A stretch of DNA of 62,553 nucleotides, counting the filler, from an uncultured bacterium (lineage in GTDB: Bacteria; DYJV01), in assembly GCA_964543655.1 (NCBI GenBank). It is 5 parts of 5 records of this genome, joined end to end, with 100 filler letters (N's around TTAATTAATTAA, not from the genome) between each part and the next. Parts side by side here need not be neighbours in the genome. Positions count along the whole stretch, not along the records: positions 1 to 21,454 come from CAZIZE010000029.1; 4 more parts are not named here. One strand, 5' to 3'. Below are positions 10,132 to 18,782 of this stretch, piece by piece. A program made the position numbers and the translations under genes. The first letter of the stretch is position 1. Every line of letters begins with the position of its first letter. Below the pieces are notes generated by a model. It ran no database searches and was not told where the DNA came from. It was given only the letters and a program-made list of their open reading frames with translations.

Positions 10132-10144
10132 AAAGGGGGTTCAA

Positions 10145-10612
10145 ATGGATGTTAAATATATTAATCCATTTTTAACTGCTACAATAAATGTTATAAAAAC
10201 CATGGCTTTTCTTGATCCAAAACCAGGAAAGCCTTTTATAAAAAAAGAGAGTAAAGCTCTTGGCGATGTTTCAGGAGTAATCGGGCTTTCTGGTGACCTA
10301 AAAGGCTCTCTCTCTATTACTTTTGAAGAAGATACTATTAAACATATTGTTTCAAATATGTTTGGTGAAGATATAAATGAGATTAATGATGAAGTTAGAG
10401 ATGCAGTTGGAGAACTGACCAATATGATTTCAGGAGATGCAAGAAGGCAATTGCAAAGTTTTGGAGTTAAAATTGATGCTGCAATCCCTTCTATTATCAC
10501 TGGAAAAAACCACACCATCACCCATATTGCCAAAGGTCCAATTGTAGCACTACCATTTGATACTGAAAAAGGAAAATTCATTGTTGAATTCACCATGGAA
10601 AAAACTAAATAA
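10145..10612 (+). CDS. cheX: Chemotaxis phosphatase CheX
   Basis: YINPFL, DVSGVIGLSG, GELTNMISG (ExxN motif). Confidence 0.9.
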   Translation: MDVKYINPFLTATINVIKTMAFLDPKPGKPFIKKESKALGDVSGVIGLSGDLKGSLSITFEEDTIKHIVSNMFGEDINEINDEVRDAVGELTNMISGDARRQLQSFGVKIDAAIPSIITGKNHTITHIAKGPIVALPFDTEKGKFIVEFTMEKTK

Positions 10613-10798: not shown

Positions 10799-11158
10799 AT
10801 GACAGACTATTTTATTTTTAGAAATAGCATACTTAAATATTGTTTAATATTGTCGACAATATTTATTACACTATTTTTTGTTTTAGGAGAAAATAGGCTT
10901 GCATACGGTTTTATCTTAGGTGCCATTATATCAACAATTAATTTTTACCTGATGAGTCTCTCAAATTTAAAACTTATTACAATCCAGCAAAGTAGTAGAG
11001 CTATTCTAAATTTCATAAGCAAAAATCTCCTTTTCAGATATATTTTAATTTTTCTCACTTTAATAATTGCTTTAAAATATCCTATAATTAGTTTTAGTGG
11101 TACTTTAATTGGGTTATTTGTTGTTCAAATGTCAATTATTTTTAAAAATTTTATATAA
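10799..11158 (+). CDS. atpI: ATP synthase protein I (AtpI/UncI)
   Basis: 119-aa protein with four hydrophobic segments directly upstream of atpB; RY in the third helix. Confidence 0.75.
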   Translation: MTDYFIFRNSILKYCLILSTIFITLFFVLGENRLAYGFILGAIISTINFYLMSLSNLKLITIQQSSRAILNFISKNLLFRYILIFLTLIIALKYPIISFSGTLIGLFVVQMSIIFKNFI

Positions 11159-11170
11159 TTAGAAGGGCAA

Positions 11171-11845
11171 ATGGGAGACATAGGCAAAATTTTACAGTTA
11201 CATTTTACTTTAATGGGTATGAATATTACCCTGAATATAAAAACTATTCTTATGTCCTGGCTGATAATGGCATCTCTTATAATATTTTCATTGCTTGTTA
11301 CAACAAAAATTAGGTTAGTTCCTACAGTTTTACAATCACTTGCAGAAACAATTGTTCAAGCCTTTGACAAATTAGTTGCAGATACTTTAGAATCAAATGA
11401 CAGAAAATATTTTCCATTTATAACCGCTCTTTTTATGTTTCTTCTTCTCTGCAATTACATAGGAGTAATCCCAGGCTGTGATGAGCCTACTAAAGATTTA
11501 AATACTCCTCTTGGACTTGCTATTCTTGGCTTTATTATAGCACACTACTCTGGAATTAGATATAAAGGTATTTTAAAATATGCCAAAGAATATCTTGAAC
11601 CATTTTTTATAATGGCACCACTTAATCTTATTGGTGAGCTTGCCAAAGTTATATCAATTTCTTTCAGGCTTTTTGGTAATATAATGGGTGGTTCTATTAT
11701 TATTATAGTTGTTTCCCATTTGGTTTATAGCTTGGTGCTGCCACCATTTTTATATGCTTTTTTTGGAATATTTGTTGGAACAGTACAGGCATTTGTTTTT
11801 ACAATGTTAAGCCTTGTTTATATTGCATTACAAATTAAAGAGTAG
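11171..11845 (+). CDS. atpB: F0 subunit a
   Basis: PTKDLNTPL, SISFRLFGNIMGG (essential Arg), VQAFVFTMLS. Confidence 0.96.
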   Translation: MGDIGKILQLHFTLMGMNITLNIKTILMSWLIMASLIIFSLLVTTKIRLVPTVLQSLAETIVQAFDKLVADTLESNDRKYFPFITALFMFLLLCNYIGVIPGCDEPTKDLNTPLGLAILGFIIAHYSGIRYKGILKYAKEYLEPFFIMAPLNLIGELAKVISISFRLFGNIMGGSIIIIVVSHLVYSLVLPPFLYAFFGIFVGTVQAFVFTMLSLVYIALQIKE

Positions 11846-11848
11846 ACA

Positions 11849-12577
11849 ATGAACATAGCACAAATTATTGATGCATCAGCCTTTTTTTCTGCTGGTATAT
11901 GTATGGGTACAGGAGCAGTAGGTGCTGCAATTGGTGAAGGATATGCAGCAGGAGAAGCTGTTAACAGTATTTCTATACAGCCAAAAGCTTCAGCAGAGAT
12001 ATTAAAAACAATGCTTGTAAGTATGGCTATAGCTGAATCTGCATCAATTTTTGCTCTTGTAGTTGCTATACTTTTACTTTTCCAAAATTTCACTGAAGGG
12101 AATCTCTACACTGCTATGGCTCTTATTTCAGCTGGAATAAGCATGGGTATTGGTGCATTTGGCGCAGGAGTGGGCTCTGGCTTTCCAGGTGGAACCGCAT
12201 GTAGAGGAATTGCTCGTAATCCTCGAGCTACTACTCAAATTTCTACCAATATGCTTGTTGGTCAGGCTGTTGCACAAACACCAGCTATTTTTGCTATGCT
12301 CGTTGCATTTATTTTAATGTATAAATCTTATCCTTCAACTATTACCATCACATATCTTGCTGCTATTTTAGGAGCTGGAATTTCTATGGGTTTTGGAGCT
12401 ATTGGTCCAGGTATTGGTGGCGGTATTGCAGCAGCTTCTGCTGCAGAAGGAGTTGCTAAAAATCCAGAAGTAAGTAACATACTTACAAGAATAATGTTAA
12501 TAGGACAAGCTGTTTCACAATCTACAAGTGTTTATGCACTTGTTATTTCATTTGTACTGTTATTTGTTGTAAAATAA
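11849..12577 (+). CDS. atpE: F0 subunit c, triplicated (three fused hairpins, only one carboxylate site)
   Basis: Three c-subunit repeats with loops IQP/RNP/KNP; helix-2 motifs AIAES, AVAQT, AVSQS. Confidence 0.92.
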   Translation: MNIAQIIDASAFFSAGICMGTGAVGAAIGEGYAAGEAVNSISIQPKASAEILKTMLVSMAIAESASIFALVVAILLLFQNFTEGNLYTAMALISAGISMGIGAFGAGVGSGFPGGTACRGIARNPRATTQISTNMLVGQAVAQTPAIFAMLVAFILMYKSYPSTITITYLAAILGAGISMGFGAIGPGIGGGIAAASAAEGVAKNPEVSNILTRIMLIGQAVSQSTSVYALVISFVLLFVVK

Positions 12578-12595
12578 ATTAATTGGAGGGGAGCC

Positions 12596-12844
12596 ATGGA
12601 TATAACAGGTGGTCAAATTATTAAAGCAGCTGCACTTTTAGGTGCAGGTATATGTATGGGTATTGGAGCTATTGGCCCAGGTATTGGTGAAGGTTTTGCT
12701 GCTGGCAAAGCTTGTGAAGGGGTATCACGTAATCCCAATGAAGCTGGCTTACTTACAAGAACAATGTTAGTTGGACAGGCTGTTTCAGAATCTACTGGTA
12801 TCTATGCATTAGTAATTGCGCTTTTATTAATATTTGTAGTATAA
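12596..12844 (+). CDS. atpE: F0 subunit c, single hairpin, Na+-binding signature
   Basis: [27 protein letters not shown]. Confidence 0.97.
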
Positions 12845-12864
12845 AAATCTAAAAGGAGAGTAAA

Positions 12865-13293
12865 GTGATAAATATCAATTTTACTATAATCATACAAGTG
12901 ATAAATTTCATTTTCCTAATGTGGTTTTTAAATAAGTATCTTTTTAAACCTGTTCTAAAGATGCTTGATGAAAGAGAGAATAAAATAGCTGGTGATTTTG
13001 AAAAAGCTGAAAAAATTAATCAAGAAGTTGATAAAGGTCTTGAGCAGTTAGAAAAAGAGTTTAAAGAAGTTAGGTTGGAAAGTAATAACTTGAAAAATAG
13101 CATTAAGAATGAAGGTGTTGAAATAGCCAATAAGAAGCTTGAAGAAGCCAAAGGAGAAGCTGGAAAATATCTTGAAAATTTTTACAAAGAATTAGAAACC
13201 ACAAAGAATAAAGTTAAGGAAAGCCTTGAAAAAGAAGCTGATTTAATGGCAAAATCAATTGCTTCAATGTTGCTTGATAAGGAAATATCTTAA
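12865..13293 (+). CDS. atpF: F0 subunit b'
   Basis: N-terminal TM helix, LFKPVLKMLDERE, coiled coil. Confidence 0.9.
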   Translation: MININFTIIIQVINFIFLMWFLNKYLFKPVLKMLDERENKIAGDFEKAEKINQEVDKGLEQLEKEFKEVRLESNNLKNSIKNEGVEIANKKLEEAKGEAGKYLENFYKELETTKNKVKESLEKEADLMAKSIASMLLDKEIS

Positions 13294-13308
13294 ATTAAGG
13301 AGAATCTT

Positions 13309-13884
13309 ATGAAAAAGATTTTATTTTTTATTTTAACAATTGTTTTTTTACTAATACTTAATTCATTTGGTTTTTGTGCAGAAGCAGCACATGGTGAGCA
13401 TGAGCTTAAAAGGCAGCTATGGGACTTTGTTTGGAGAATAATTAACTTTGGAATTCTTGTTTTTTTACTTTACAAAGTTGGTAAAAAGCCTTTTAAAGAA
13501 TTTCTGTTTTCACGAAAAGAAAAGATAGAAACTGCTATTATTGAAGCTGAAAATGCTCTAAAACTTGCTGAGGACAGAAAAAAAGAGTATGAAGAAAAAA
13601 TTAAAAATTTAGAAAAAGAGAAAAAAGCTATTTTAGAACAGTTTAGAAAAGAAGGTGAAATTGCAAAAGAAAGAATAATTGCAGATGCAGAAGAGAAAGC
13701 TAAAAAAATTATTCAGCAGGCTAAAGTTGCTGCTGAGCAGGAAATAGAAAAAGAGAAAGAGCTTATTAAACTTGAAACTGTTAACAAAGTTATTTCACTT
13801 GCTGAAGATATTATTAAGAAAAACATTACAGATGAAGATCATGACAAAATTATCAAAAAATCTATAGAAAGGATGGTGAGCTAA
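13309..13884 (+). CDS. atpF: F0 subunit b with N-terminal extension
   Basis: WRIINFGILV...KKPFKEFLFSRKEKI followed by a coiled coil. Confidence 0.9.
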   Translation: MKKILFFILTIVFLLILNSFGFCAEAAHGEHELKRQLWDFVWRIINFGILVFLLYKVGKKPFKEFLFSRKEKIETAIIEAENALKLAEDRKKEYEEKIKNLEKEKKAILEQFRKEGEIAKERIIADAEEKAKKIIQQAKVAAEQEIEKEKELIKLETVNKVISLAEDIIKKNITDEDHDKIIKKSIERMVS

Positions 13885-13886
13885 AA

Positions 13887-14429
13887 TTGATTAAATATAA
13901 AGTTGCTACCAAATATGCCAAAGCACTATTTTCACTTGCAAAAGATGAGAATTTAACAGAAAAAGTTTTAACTGACCTTTCCTTGATTACAGAGATATTT
14001 AAAATTAGCAAAGATTTTCAAATAGTAATGGTAGGTGCGATTGTTTCAAAAGAGGAGAAAAAGGAACTAATAGAAGATATTTCTAAAAAATATAAGTTCA
14101 ACAAAATAACAGAGAATTTTTTAAAGATTCTTATAGATAAAAGGAAAATAAAGTTCCTGCCATTTATTTTAGACAAATATCAAAAACTTTACAGAGATGA
14201 TATTGGAATAATGGTTGCAGAAATAATTTCTGCTATAAAACTTCAAAAAAGTAAGATTAATGAAATCAAGAAAAACCTTGAAAAGAAACTTAATAAAAAA
14301 CTTGAAATTAACAATAAAATTGATCCAGAAATTTTAGGTGGCATTATTGTAAAGACTGAAGGATTAACTTATGATAGCTCATTAAAAATGCAATTAACAA
14401 AAATTAAAGAAAATATATTAAAGGGGTAG
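13887..14429 (+). CDS. atpH: F1 subunit delta
   Basis: VATKYAKALF, IDPEILGGII, YDSSLKMQL. Confidence 0.93.
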   Translation: MIKYKVATKYAKALFSLAKDENLTEKVLTDLSLITEIFKISKDFQIVMVGAIVSKEEKKELIEDISKKYKFNKITENFLKILIDKRKIKFLPFILDKYQKLYRDDIGIMVAEIISAIKLQKSKINEIKKNLEKKLNKKLEINNKIDPEILGGIIVKTEGLTYDSSLKMQLTKIKENILKG

Positions 14430-14432
14430 AAA

Positions 14433-15947
14433 ATGCAAATAAGAGCAGATGAAATCAGTAGCGTTTTAAAGGAACACATTAAAAATTATGAGCAAAAGGT
14501 TGAAATTAGCGAAACAGGGACTGTTTTAAGTGTTGGTGATGGAATTGCAAGGGTATACGGTCTTGAAAAAGTTATGGCTGGTGAGCTTGTAGAATTTCCT
14601 GGTGGAATTTACGGACTTGCTTTAAACCTTGAGGAAGACAATGTTGGTATTGCTATTCTTGGTGAAGATGTGCATATTAAAGAAGGTGATGAAGTAAAAA
14701 GAACAGGTAGAATTTTTGAGGTTCCTGTTGGAAAAGCAATGCTTGGAAGGGTAGTTGACCCAGTTGGAACTCCACTTGATGGCAAAGGTCCAATTAAAAC
14801 TGATGAAACAAGAAAAGTTGAAATTAAAGCTCCAGGTATTGTTATGAGACAACCTGTTCATGAGCCTCTGCAAACAGGTCTCAAAGCTATTGACTCAATG
14901 ATTCCAATTGGTAGGGGACAAAGGGAGCTTATTATTGGTGATAGACAAACAGGTAAAACTGCTATTGCTATTGATACCATAATCAATCAGAAAGGAAAGA
15001 ATTGTTACTGTATTTACGTTGCTATTGGTCAGAAAAGGTCAACAGTTGCTCAAGTTGTTGCAACTCTTGAAGAACATGGTGCAATGGAATATACCACAAT
15101 AGTTGCTGCAACTGCAAGTGACCCTGCTCCTCTTCAATATATCGCCCCTTATGCTGGTGTTACAATGGGTGAATATTTTAGAGACAACGGTATGCATGCA
15201 GTTATTATTTACGATGACCTTTCTAAGCAAGCTACAGCTTATAGACAGCTTTCATTACTCCTCAGAAGACCTCCTGGAAGGGAAGCTTATCCTGGTGATA
15301 TTTTCTATACACACTCAAGATTGCTCGAAAGAGCAGCAAAGCTTAGTGATGATCAGGGAGCTGGTTCATTAACAGCGCTTCCTATAATTGAGACTCAGGC
15401 AGGTGATGTTTCTGCATATATTCCTACAAATGTTATCTCTATTACAGATGGTCAGATATACCTTGAAAGTGACCTGTTTTACTCAGGTGTTAGACCTGCT
15501 GTTAATGTTGGGCTATCTGTATCAAGGGTTGGTGGTAGTGCTCAAATTAAAGCTATGAAGCAGGTAGCTGGTAGTTTAAGGCTTGACCTTGCTCAATACA
15601 GGGAACTTGAAGCATTTGCGCAGTTTGGTAGTGACCTTGACAAAGCTACTCAAATGCAGTTAGCAAGAGGTGCAAGGCTTGTTGAAATTCTCAAGCAGGA
15701 TCAGTACAAGCCTTTACCAGTAGAGAAACAGGTGTTAATAATTTATGCAGGTACCAATGGTTATCTTGATAAATATCCTGTTGAATCTCTCAACAAGTAT
15801 GAAGAGGAATTATACAACTTTATTGAAAATAATTATCCTGATATTATTTCAAAATTAGAAACAGAAAAGCAGATAAATGATGAAATAAAAGCAAAATTAG
15901 ATGAAGCATTAAGCAAATTTGATGAAGTATTTGTAGCAGAAAAATAG
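14433..15947 (+). CDS. atpA: F1 subunit alpha
   Basis: [18 protein letters not shown]. Confidence 0.99.
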
Positions 15948-15956
15948 GAGAATAAA

Positions 15957-16811
15957 ATGGCTAACTTACGAGATATTAAAAAAAGAATTGCCAGTGTAAA
16001 AAATACACAGCAAATTACCAAAGCAATGTATATGGTTTCTGCTGCAAAGTTGAGAAGAGCAGAAGAGGCAATCAAAGCTGCGCTTCCATATTCAGAAAAG
16101 TTAAAAATGATAATGTCAAGTATCTTTGCTCGAATTGAGAACAAAGAGCATCCACTTCTTGTTGAAAGAGAGCCCAGAAATGTTTTAATTGTTGGTATTG
16201 CCTCTGACAGAGGTCTTTGCGGCAGTTTTAATAACCATTTGCTTAAAGAGATAAACAACTTCATGAATGAAAATAACTATAATTTTTCTGCAATAGCAAT
16301 AGGTAGAAAAGTGAGAGATTTTTTCAAAAAAAGAGATGTAAAGCTGATTTCTCAATATGAAGGTGTGGCAAATGCAGATTATTCTTCAGCTGCATCTATT
16401 AGTGACACTATCTGTAAACTTTACAAAGAAGAGGAAATAGATAGAGTTTATATTGTTTACAATCATTTTGTTTCAGCAATTTCCCAAAAGCTACAATTTG
16501 ATCAAATTTTACCAGTTGAGCCAGAGGATCTTGAAACTGAACAATATGTTGTAGAATACCTTACAGAGCCTTCTCTGAATGAAATTCTTGATGTTATTAT
16601 TCCAAAATATATAGCAAATGATATTTACACAGCATGGCTTGATTCTATTGCAAGTGAGCATGCAGCAAGGATGACTTCTATGGATAATGCTACTAAGAAT
16701 GCTTCTGAAATGATAGACAAGCTTACACTTCTTTTTAACAGAGTTAGACAGGCTACAATTACAAAAGAGCTTATGGAAATTATAGGTGGTAAAGAGGCTT
16801 TGGAAGGTTAA
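15957..16811 (+). CDS. atpG: F1 subunit gamma
   Basis: KNTQQITKAM, DRGLCGSFN, RQATITKELMEI. Confidence 0.98.
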   Translation: MANLRDIKKRIASVKNTQQITKAMYMVSAAKLRRAEEAIKAALPYSEKLKMIMSSIFARIENKEHPLLVEREPRNVLIVGIASDRGLCGSFNNHLLKEINNFMNENNYNFSAIAIGRKVRDFFKKRDVKLISQYEGVANADYSSAASISDTICKLYKEEEIDRVYIVYNHFVSAISQKLQFDQILPVEPEDLETEQYVVEYLTEPSLNEILDVIIPKYIANDIYTAWLDSIASEHAARMTSMDNATKNASEMIDKLTLLFNRVRQATITKELMEIIGGKEALEG

Positions 16812-16828
16812 ATTAAAAAATAAATTAA

Positions 16829-18256
<1,428 letters not shown>

Positions 18257-18267
18257 AGGAGCAATAA

Positions 18268-18666
18268 ATGAGATTTGAACTTGTTTCACCATCCAAGGTA
18301 ATTTTTGAAGGCACTGTTGAAGAAGTTAATGCACCAGGAATAGAAGGTGACTTTGGTGTTTTGCCCGGACATACACCATTTTTAACATTTTTAAATGTTG
18401 GTGAATTAATATATAAAGTAAATGGTAATGAAAAATATGTTGCTATAGATGGCGGTATAATAGAGGTTCTGCCAGCAAGAGTTATAGCTGTTGTTGATGA
18501 TGCATTACCAGCTGAAGAGATAGATTTAAAAGAAGCAGAAGAGATGAAAGCATCATCTGAGCAAAGACTCAGAGAGCTGTCAGAGGAAGATAAAGAGTAC
18601 ATTGTTGAAAAAGCAAAACTTGCAAAAGCTTTAAATCTTATAAAAGTTGCAGGAAGATTGAAATAG
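18268..18666 (+). CDS. atpC: F1 subunit epsilon
   Basis: ELVSP, EGDFGVLPGHTP. Confidence 0.95.
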   Translation: MRFELVSPSKVIFEGTVEEVNAPGIEGDFGVLPGHTPFLTFLNVGELIYKVNGNEKYVAIDGGIIEVLPARVIAVVDDALPAEEIDLKEAEEMKASSEQRLRELSEEDKEYIVEKAKLAKALNLIKVAGRLK

Positions 18667-18708: not shown

Positions 18709-18782
18709 GGCGGCATAGCTCAGATGGTTAGAGCATGCGGCTCATATCCGCAGTGTCCGGGGTTCGATTCCCTGTGCCGCCA
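18709..18782 (+). tRNA. tRNA-Met(CAT), elongator type; CCA not encoded
   Basis: Cloverleaf: acceptor GGCGGCA/TGCCGCC, D stem GCTC/GAGC, anticodon stem TGCGG/CCGCA with loop CTCATAT, T loop TTCGATT; followed by CTA instead of CCA. Confidence 0.93.

Follow-up and report, generated by a model that had tools for sequence, protein, structure and literature searches.

A three-hairpin c subunit with one putative Na+ site encoded in an F-type ATP synthase operon of an uncultured bacterium

In the Na+-coupled rotor of Fusobacterium nucleatum, a ring of 11 c subunits, Na+ is reported to be bound by Glu32 and Glu65 of one subunit, the adjacent subunit adding Val63:O and Ser66 to the site; Glu65 is hydrogen-bonded by Tyr70 and Ser66, and Thr67 holds a water molecule (PMC3692424). 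The ring of Acetobacterium woodii is described as a mixed one, with c1 and c2/3 in the ratio of 1:9 (PMC9171764). In the printed alignment the first hairpin of A. woodii c1 reads Q..E-T-S..F and the second one Q..Q-T-T..Y, and the same residue pattern is stated for the c1 subunits of Clostridium aceticum and A. woodii (PMC7911925). [quoted passage not shown] In Bacillus PS3, Mitome et al. fused c hairpins artificially, and the covalently joined units formed a working F-type rotor (PMC8809890). Here we analyze an F-type ATP synthase operon in a 62,553-nucleotide stretch of DNA from an uncultured bacterium (assembly GCA_964543655.1; hereafter "the window", i.e., the whole stretch of DNA that was analyzed), in which a gene for a c subunit of three fused hairpins (c3) stands immediately ahead of a gene for an ordinary one-hairpin c subunit (single c). 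We estimate at roughly three in four the probability that the c3 gene, coding for 242 amino acids (aa), specifies a functional F-type rotor subunit of three joined hairpins with one Na+ site, which likely works in a mixed ring with the single c.

The reading frame of c3 (11849-12577, + strand) is open and specifies a protein of ~24 kDa, and that of the single c (12596-12844, +) encodes 82 aa. The Pfam family ATP-synt_C (PF00137) matched the former protein in three stretches (E-value 6.6e-40, 135.6 bits at a cut-off of 24) and the latter one once (E-value 3.3e-19), in agreement with the initial annotation of this DNA, which had read the pair as a three-hairpin c protein followed by a normal one. 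When aligned to the single c, hairpins 1, 2 and 3 of c3 are 50, 45 and 59% identical to it, respectively. At positions 32, 65, 66, 67 and 70, where the single c has E/E/S/T/Y, hairpin 1 (11849-12088, +) carries E30, E63, S64, A65 and F68, hairpin 2 (12089-12328, +) S110, Q143, T144, P145 and F148, and hairpin 3 (12329-12577, +, stop codon included) G191, Q224, S225, T226 and Y229. Hairpin 1 is the sole c3 hairpin with ion-binding carboxylates, the ion-carrying one in the C-terminal helix (E63) being replaced by Q143 and Q224 in the other two; hairpin 2 is a blank, and hairpin 3 lacks the carboxylates and keeps Ser, Thr and Tyr. Among 31 three-hairpin proteins, T226 and Y229 are almost invariant. 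The alignment reproduced the residue list previously drawn up for all three hairpins, with one amendment: hairpin 1 had been considered devoid of the Thr/Tyr partners, and Thr and Tyr are indeed replaced in it (A65, F68), but the Ser at position 66 is still there (S64). The existence of a three-hairpin gene with this residue pattern is thereby confirmed.

The single c is the same as the F. nucleatum c subunit (PDB 3ZK1) at 7/7 site positions (E32, Q61, V63, E65, S66, T67 and Y70), i.e., it has the full two-carboxylate Na+ motif, and hairpin 1 of c3 has the same two glutamates. In c3 itself this motif is split, both Glu residues standing on hairpin 1 (E30/E63) and S225/T226/Y229 on hairpin 3, whereas the F. 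nucleatum ring is made of one kind of subunit with one hairpin each, and its PDB entries hold one c sequence. A two-carboxylate site is reported to bind a proton as well (PMC3692424), and in principle the rotor could be proton-coupled, with the Na+ motif being misleading; we find this improbable, however, since the ring matched at all seven positions is reported to be Na+-coupled (PMC3692424), and since an RnfD/NqrB-family gene was found in 5/5 searched genomes carrying a multi-hairpin c gene (hereafter carriers) vs 4/14 control genomes.

As was previously suggested, the natural precedent is A. woodii c1 (PDB 4BEM), which proved to be the best solved match of c3 both in sequence (chain 4bem_J, E-value 2e-26) and in fold (template modeling score, TM, of 0.78 on the target; root-mean-square deviation, rmsd, 1.7 Å), and which displays the same residue pattern. 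In both organisms the multi-hairpin gene belongs to an F-type operon and immediately precedes a one-hairpin c gene, the first hairpin has a carboxylate and Phe70, and in the last one Gln replaces Glu, the Thr/Thr/Tyr residues (Ser/Thr/Tyr in c3) being kept. With its active first hairpin lacking Tyr and its blank last hairpin bearing Thr-Thr-Tyr, c1 therefore shows the same logic as the window protein. The differences are that c3 has three hairpins and six helices instead of two and four, with two consecutive blanks, that its middle hairpin class (x..QTPF) is without a counterpart in c1, that its position 32 is Glu (two-carboxylate type) rather than Gln, and that 158 alignment columns of the 242-residue c3 model superpose on c1.

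This model was obtained with AlphaFold2 from an alignment of 31 relatives and is of high confidence (predicted local distance difference test, pLDDT, 96.2; predicted TM, pTM, 0.89). Its six long helices pair into three hairpins, between which short loops run at 79-85 and 159-166, and solved single-hairpin c chains superpose on it with an rmsd of 1.0-1.2 Å. V-type c chains were the next-best fold matches, and no solved chain spanned all three hairpins (TM on the query at most 0.59).

In the solved Na+ c-rings each site lies between two hairpins, residues 32 and 65 coming from one of them and the backbone of residue 63, together with the side chains of residues 66, 67 and 70, from the preceding one. 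By this geometry hairpin 1 of c3 gives both glutamates, hairpins 2 and 3 give none, and hairpin 3 alone offers Ser/Thr/Tyr onward. As the glutamates are on hairpin 1 only, c3 should occupy three ring positions and carry one Na+, leaving two consecutive blanks, while both of its outer edges could complete normal sites with the single c from the neighboring gene. The likeliest assembly would be a mixed ring of many single c and one or few triples, similar to that of A. woodii (c1 plus c2/c3). Compared with an equally large ring built of single c, such a ring would need less Na+ for each turn and hence for each ATP; with N hairpins, one triple among them, it would have N-2 sites. The rings of Ilyobacter tartaricus, F. 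nucleatum and A. woodii have N = 11. For this N, one triple and eight single c would give 9 Na+ per turn, i.e., 3.0 vs 3.67 Na+/ATP, a speculative calculation taken over from the initial annotation. To cross two blank steps against the F1 load, the rotor would have to draw on elastic storage or thermal motion. From the genes we infer the expression of c3, its co-assembly with the single c, and the ring size, stoichiometry and Na+ coupling of the enzyme.

When the triple was modeled together with two copies of single c, the predicted complex scored 0.70 (0.69-0.73 in three runs), the best of three controls scoring 0.00; such a score was attained by 58/80 solved complexes and by 2/110 mismatched pairs, but as PDB 4BEM is a solved structure the score may reflect memory and is to be read as likeness, not as binding. 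The runs shared at least 96% of the contacts, and the partner pLDDT was at least 83. The copy placed on hairpin 3 turned its 61/65/68/72 face to residues 222-227/229-230/233-234 of that hairpin, with Y229 opposite residue 72, and the copy on hairpin 1 turned its 63-68/70-71/74-75 face to residues 59/63/66/70. The predicted docking register is the one the interpretation needs, in which the preceding subunit would complete the hairpin 1 site and hairpin 3 would complete that of the next subunit.

To place c3 among its relatives, one genome per species was scanned; 336/435 candidate stretches encoded a relative, of which the best 80 were analyzed, and the c proteins of these loci and of the window were cut into hairpins with a hidden Markov model and scored at the site positions. 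The search for a multi-hairpin c gene beside a single one, proposed in the initial annotation, thus yielded 80 loci besides the window, and the supposition made there that the arrangement is at least rare did not hold: the family is common in uncultured anaerobes, and in an even sample of one phylum, that of genome G003 (see below), 17/201 genomes have a multi-hairpin c (E-value ≤ 1e-30). The 80 loci belong to Thermodesulfobacteriota, including Desulfobacterales, Syntrophobacteraceae and the cultured Desulfacinum hydrothermale DSM 13146 (L013), as well as to Marinamargulisbacteria, Brocadiaceae/Planctomycetota and several unnamed phyla. The size range of 133-424 aa holds numerous entries named 'ATP synthase F0 subunit C', with lengths near 242, 324 and 404 aa; a search of the 425-2000 aa range gave 30 clusters, 29 of 481-490 aa (six hairpins) and one of 434 aa, and none beyond 490 aa.

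Over the 81 proteins, three have two hairpins with one E65, three two hairpins with two, 13 (the window's included) three hairpins with one, 18 three hairpins with two, 13 four hairpins with one, 20 four hairpins with two, seven five hairpins with one and three six hairpins with one; a single three-hairpin protein without E65 comes from a truncated gene. The multi-hairpin gene precedes the single-c gene in 78 of the 81 operons and follows it in three. Natural four-hairpin proteins (e.g., L003, L034 and L075) consist of three window-like hairpins and a fourth one that is active and c-like. The six-hairpin proteins (L029, L040, L045; P0244-P0273; 481-490 aa) have one E65 site and five blanks in a row. 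In the literature searched, no description of a bacterial F-type c subunit with three or more hairpins was found, supplements being outside its coverage and hybrid-rotor reviews possibly mentioning longer c proteins; a review preprint of October 2026 names, in its available part, A. woodii as the sole F-type example, and a 2026 Desulfatiglans paper mentions 'two to four atpE copies', no fused hairpins being described in the accessible portion of its text. We thus regard c3 as an apparently new form of the A. woodii-type hybrid rotor, undescribed in the literature searched.

The complementarity expected from the site geometry was counted on 77 operons with the multi-hairpin gene first and, inside the polypeptides, on 212 neighbor pairs. 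In 75/77 operons the first hairpin combines E65 with F70; the last one has [S/T]-T-Y in 76/77, and the single c that follows has E..E[S/T]TY in 76/77, the remaining one being cut by a contig end. Inside the chains, Tyr70 in a hairpin is followed by E65 in the next hairpin in 21/22 pairs, and hairpins without Tyr70 are followed by E65 in 20/190. Unlike architectures obey this rule too, e.g., L054 and L065 with the succession ESAF-QTSY-ETPF-QSTY. The earlier proposal that the outer interfaces of c3 are live and the inner ones dead is backed by the published F. nucleatum site (PMC3692424), the c1 pattern of A. woodii, the Tyr70/E65 pairs and the predicted complex. When the best match of each hairpin was sought in another locus at no more than 80% identity, it fell into the same class for 78/80 first hairpins, 127/129 dead middle hairpins (the class of the window's hairpin 2), 35/42 dead last hairpins and 80/80 single c subunits; the hairpin classes are orthologous across loci, and so the architecture is inherited, not re-invented from the local single c.

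Several points weigh against the proposed reading. Of the 41 E65 hairpins that have a predecessor in the chain, 20 are preceded by a hairpin without Tyr70 (Phe or Leu instead); these belong to 12 proteins of the Marinamargulisbacteria type, five 'QTPL' four-hairpin proteins, L006, L010 and L053. In addition, the last hairpin of L033 is QSPF, and in L019 one Tyr70 stands ahead of a blank hairpin. The three-hairpin c of the Marinamargulisbacteria type (L018, L020, L027, L032, L037, L038, L044, L046, L049, L050, L059 and L074) has two sites, in hairpins 1 and 3, with Asp or Ser at position 32 of hairpin 3, and its blank hairpin 2 has Phe70 before the active hairpin, contrary to the Tyr rule. As the sequences counted are related to one another, the numbers should not be read as independent events. 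In fused c10 of Bacillus PS3 a single E56Q replacement abolished ATP synthesis (Mitome 2004, cited in PMC8809890), so that not every F-type enzyme tolerates blanks; two consecutive ones may cost speed. Judged from the residue pattern, several triples per ring, or triples only, would fit equally well, as the Ser/Thr/Tyr face of hairpin 3 suits the hairpin 1 glutamates of another c3 copy no less than those of the single c. The start codons underlying the comparison of translation signals given below were, moreover, assigned by rule and are unverified.

A ring composed of several triples or of triples only (e.g., four of three hairpins each, with four sites) is nevertheless unlikely in our view, because the single-c gene accompanies the multi-hairpin gene in 81/81 operons, because the A. 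woodii precedent is 9:1 (PMC9171764), and because in nearly all three-hairpin operons the ribosome-binding site of the single c is the stronger of the two. In the window, the c3 start codon lies 3 nt past the stop codon of the a subunit gene and has a weak Shine-Dalgarno sequence, and that of the single c is strong; pairing with the anti-Shine-Dalgarno sequence was stronger for the single c in 28/30 three-hairpin operons, two truncated loci being omitted (medians -10.2 vs -6.25 kcal/mol). Such a difference would agree with a larger output of single c than of triple, though it is only a hint. With respect to the blanks of the mixed ring, the PS3 fused rings, which differ from the window system in being artificial and H+-coupled, were also reported to suffer less from two impaired sites when these were adjacent than when they were apart (PMC8809890), so contiguous blanks within one polypeptide would make sense.

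The integrity of the gene was assessed at the level of DNA. The c3 hairpins and the single c are 50-69% identical to one another in DNA, which is too much divergence for a tandem copy of recent date or for a stutter of the assembly. DNA nearly identical to 11171-13293 is indexed in X1 (share 0.97), a run that bears the label hydrothermal vent metagenome, is possibly the source and supplied two short matching pieces only, and likewise in X2 (share 0.66), a run from a second study. Contigs of this independent study match 11276-12170, 12164-12345 and 12407-12594 with 0-1 differences; they span the a/c3 and hairpin 1/2 junctions and fail to bridge the hairpin 2/3 junction by 31 letters. With the 91%-identical relative L001 as the reference, the ratio of nonsynonymous to synonymous substitution rates (dN/dS) is 0.017 for the single c, and 0.036 for hairpin 1, 0.074 for hairpin 2 and 0.084 for hairpin 3; with L002 the three hairpins give, in the same order, 0.059, 0.044 and 0.102. 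Such low values indicate that the blank hairpins are under strong constraint (purifying selection). The repeat structure itself, and nothing beyond it, could raise the suspicion of an assembly artefact or of a decaying duplicate without function; considering the divergence of the hairpins, a dN/dS of 0.04-0.10 in each of them, the same architecture in 80 independently assembled loci, and the X2 contigs, we rejected this explanation on the sequence evidence as having almost no chance of being true, in line with the earlier judgement that misassembly was unlikely.

The multi-hairpin c protein is accompanied by its own kind of a subunit. In the sample of 201 genomes, all 17 carriers have at least two matches to the a subunit (one of the three in G113 being below the cut-off), and never more than one was found in the 20 non-carriers checked. 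One gamma subunit gene is present in 15/17 carriers and two in G065, whereas G105 gave no match; G001, G002, G004 and G005 have one as well. The cultured Desulfacinum hydrothermale DSM 13146 has two a/c modules and one gamma. A tree of 47 a-subunit sequences was built from both copies of 10/17 carriers and of G001, G003 and G004, the window copy, the G005 copy and 19 sole copies of non-carriers; the carriers G065, G079, G105, G153, G170 and G177 are not part of it. All 15 a subunits that stand beside a multi-hairpin c, that of the window included, lie on one side of a branch with a support of 99/92, and 13 second a copies are interspersed among the sole copies. According to these sequences, the multi-hairpin module is a separate Fo lineage, which in one phylum exists beside a second, ordinary a/c pair. 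In view of the E56Q effect in PS3, such a dedicated a lineage may be what lets uncharged hairpins pass.

In G003, a complete chromosome, an Fo cassette atpZ-atpI-a-c4-c-b'-b (L084:2486-7377) lies about 32 kb from the F1 genes, and the gene behind it on the opposite strand is of the phage-integrase family, a hint of mobility; the second set of this genome is atpZ-atpI-a'-c'. An alpha subunit match in G003 (C1:2170943-2171170) covers profile positions 140-213 only, in a 250-aa frame, and may be due to a frameshift or an assembly error. Among 57 loci with at least 3.8 kb of downstream sequence, 24 run on to delta-alpha-gamma-beta like the window and 30 end after b, and b was not detected in three. 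In G001, the window's 91% relative, a second Fo set, a partial one, is located well away from the main operon (L081:6696-8395, -), consisting of ATPase_gene1 (atpZ), a 140-aa reading frame without a Pfam match, a' and a 104-aa c', and adjoining a NapC/NirT multihaem cytochrome gene; this c' has a signal-like N-terminus, Ile32, and E-S-C..Y at positions 65-67 and 70. The c' proteins of G003 and G004 have Gln32-Glu65-Ser66 and lack Thr67. In G006 (12.5 Mb; L035) there are four a-subunit matches and several alpha/beta sets, and two loci, C3:382316 and C3:425937, score identically, which may reflect a large duplication or a mixed bin.

It is conceivable, although we hold this only tentatively, that a, the multi-hairpin c and the single c, often together with b'/b, constitute a separate, transferable Fo module, a second membrane motor for one F1 whose lower gear is fixed in the genes. 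The Na+/ATP ratio would then change in steps with the number of hairpins (2-6, with 1-5 blanks), perhaps falling to about 2, and organisms with a'/c' could choose their Fo. As for the direction in which the enzyme mainly works, ATP synthesis or Na+ pumping, we can but infer it. One alternative is that the module is mainly an ATP-driven Na+ pump with a 'V-ATPase-like gear', in which F1 would drag the blanks past a, the low ratio would give a steeper Na+ gradient, and a'/c' would serve synthesis. This would explain the second a gene beside one gamma in most carriers and the a'/c' pair of the close relative G001, with Ile32 in its c', and it would be consistent with the classical view in which site loss marks a switch to ATPases (PMC9171764); the up to five consecutive blanks of the six-hairpin relatives, which look hard to pass against the load in the synthesis direction, also keep it alive. 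However, A. woodii with its one blank is reported to synthesize ATP, as is an A-type enzyme with a V-type c (PMC9171764), the sole F1 genes observed in the window stand in one line with the module, and G005 (Marinamargulisbacteria) has the multi-hairpin Fo and no other a gene in its 1.5-Mb single-cell assembly. We consider a mainly pumping enzyme the less probable option, albeit the strongest of the alternatives to the mixed rotor.

The window's c genes are part of a complete F-type ATP synthase operon, atpI-a-c3-c-b'-b-delta-alpha-gamma-beta-epsilon (10799-18666, +), all genes of which are Pfam-supported. It opens with the assembly factor atpI (10799-11158, +; ATP-synt_I, E-value 3e-10), followed by the Fo a subunit of the lineage that accompanies multi-hairpin c (11171-11845, +; ATP-synt_A, 6e-51). 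Downstream of the single c are genes for b' (12865-13293, +; ATP-synt_B, 3e-22), b (13309-13884, +; ATP-synt_B, 1.6e-18), delta (OSCP; 13887-14429, +; OSCP, 7.5e-47), alpha (14433-15947, +; ATP-synt_ab plus the N- and C-terminal domains), gamma (15957-16811, +; ATP-synt, 4.2e-102), beta (16844-18256, +; Pfam match) and, as the last gene, epsilon (18268-18666, +; ATP-synt_DE_N and ATP-synt_DE). The nearest named relatives of the beta subunit, 82-85% identical to it, are from Deltaproteobacteria, Thermodesulfobacteriota and Deferrisoma.

The combination of hairpin multiplication with subsequent ion-site loss likens c3 to the archaeal A1AO proteolipids and the V-type c subunits (Enterococcus hirae NtpK, eukaryotic c). 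The A/V enzymes, however, have a different a subunit and no delta/OSCP, whereas the window operon is canonical F-type, with the c3 gene between the a and b genes. In the proteolipid of Methanocaldococcus jannaschii two of the three sites are kept. An A-type (archaeal A1AO) origin was rejected, every neighboring gene being of F-type. N-ATPase operons have no delta gene and contain atpQ/atpR; identity with them was likewise rejected, as delta/OSCP is present and the gene order is canonical.

Directly upstream of the operon, a gene for a CheX-family chemotaxis phosphatase was found (10145-10612, +), completely overlapped by a 151-aa reading frame on the opposite strand (10141-10596, -), which is probably a shadow one. 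A tRNA gene (18709-18782, +), the window's sole Rfam match, begins 43 bases past the epsilon gene.

The smallest energy supply that can sustain a cell depends on the ion/ATP ratio, and to our knowledge the A. woodii enzyme, with its one blank position, is the only F-type enzyme known to lower this ratio by a site-less hairpin. The findings raise the questions of how an F-type a subunit lets an uncharged run pass, how low the ratio can go, and whether one F1 can be served by two different Fo. If the reading proposed here is true, it extends the use of site-less hairpins to two blanks in a row, and up to five in relatives. Such genes are present in numerous uncultured anaerobes and, among cultured species, at least in Desulfacinum hydrothermale DSM 13146.

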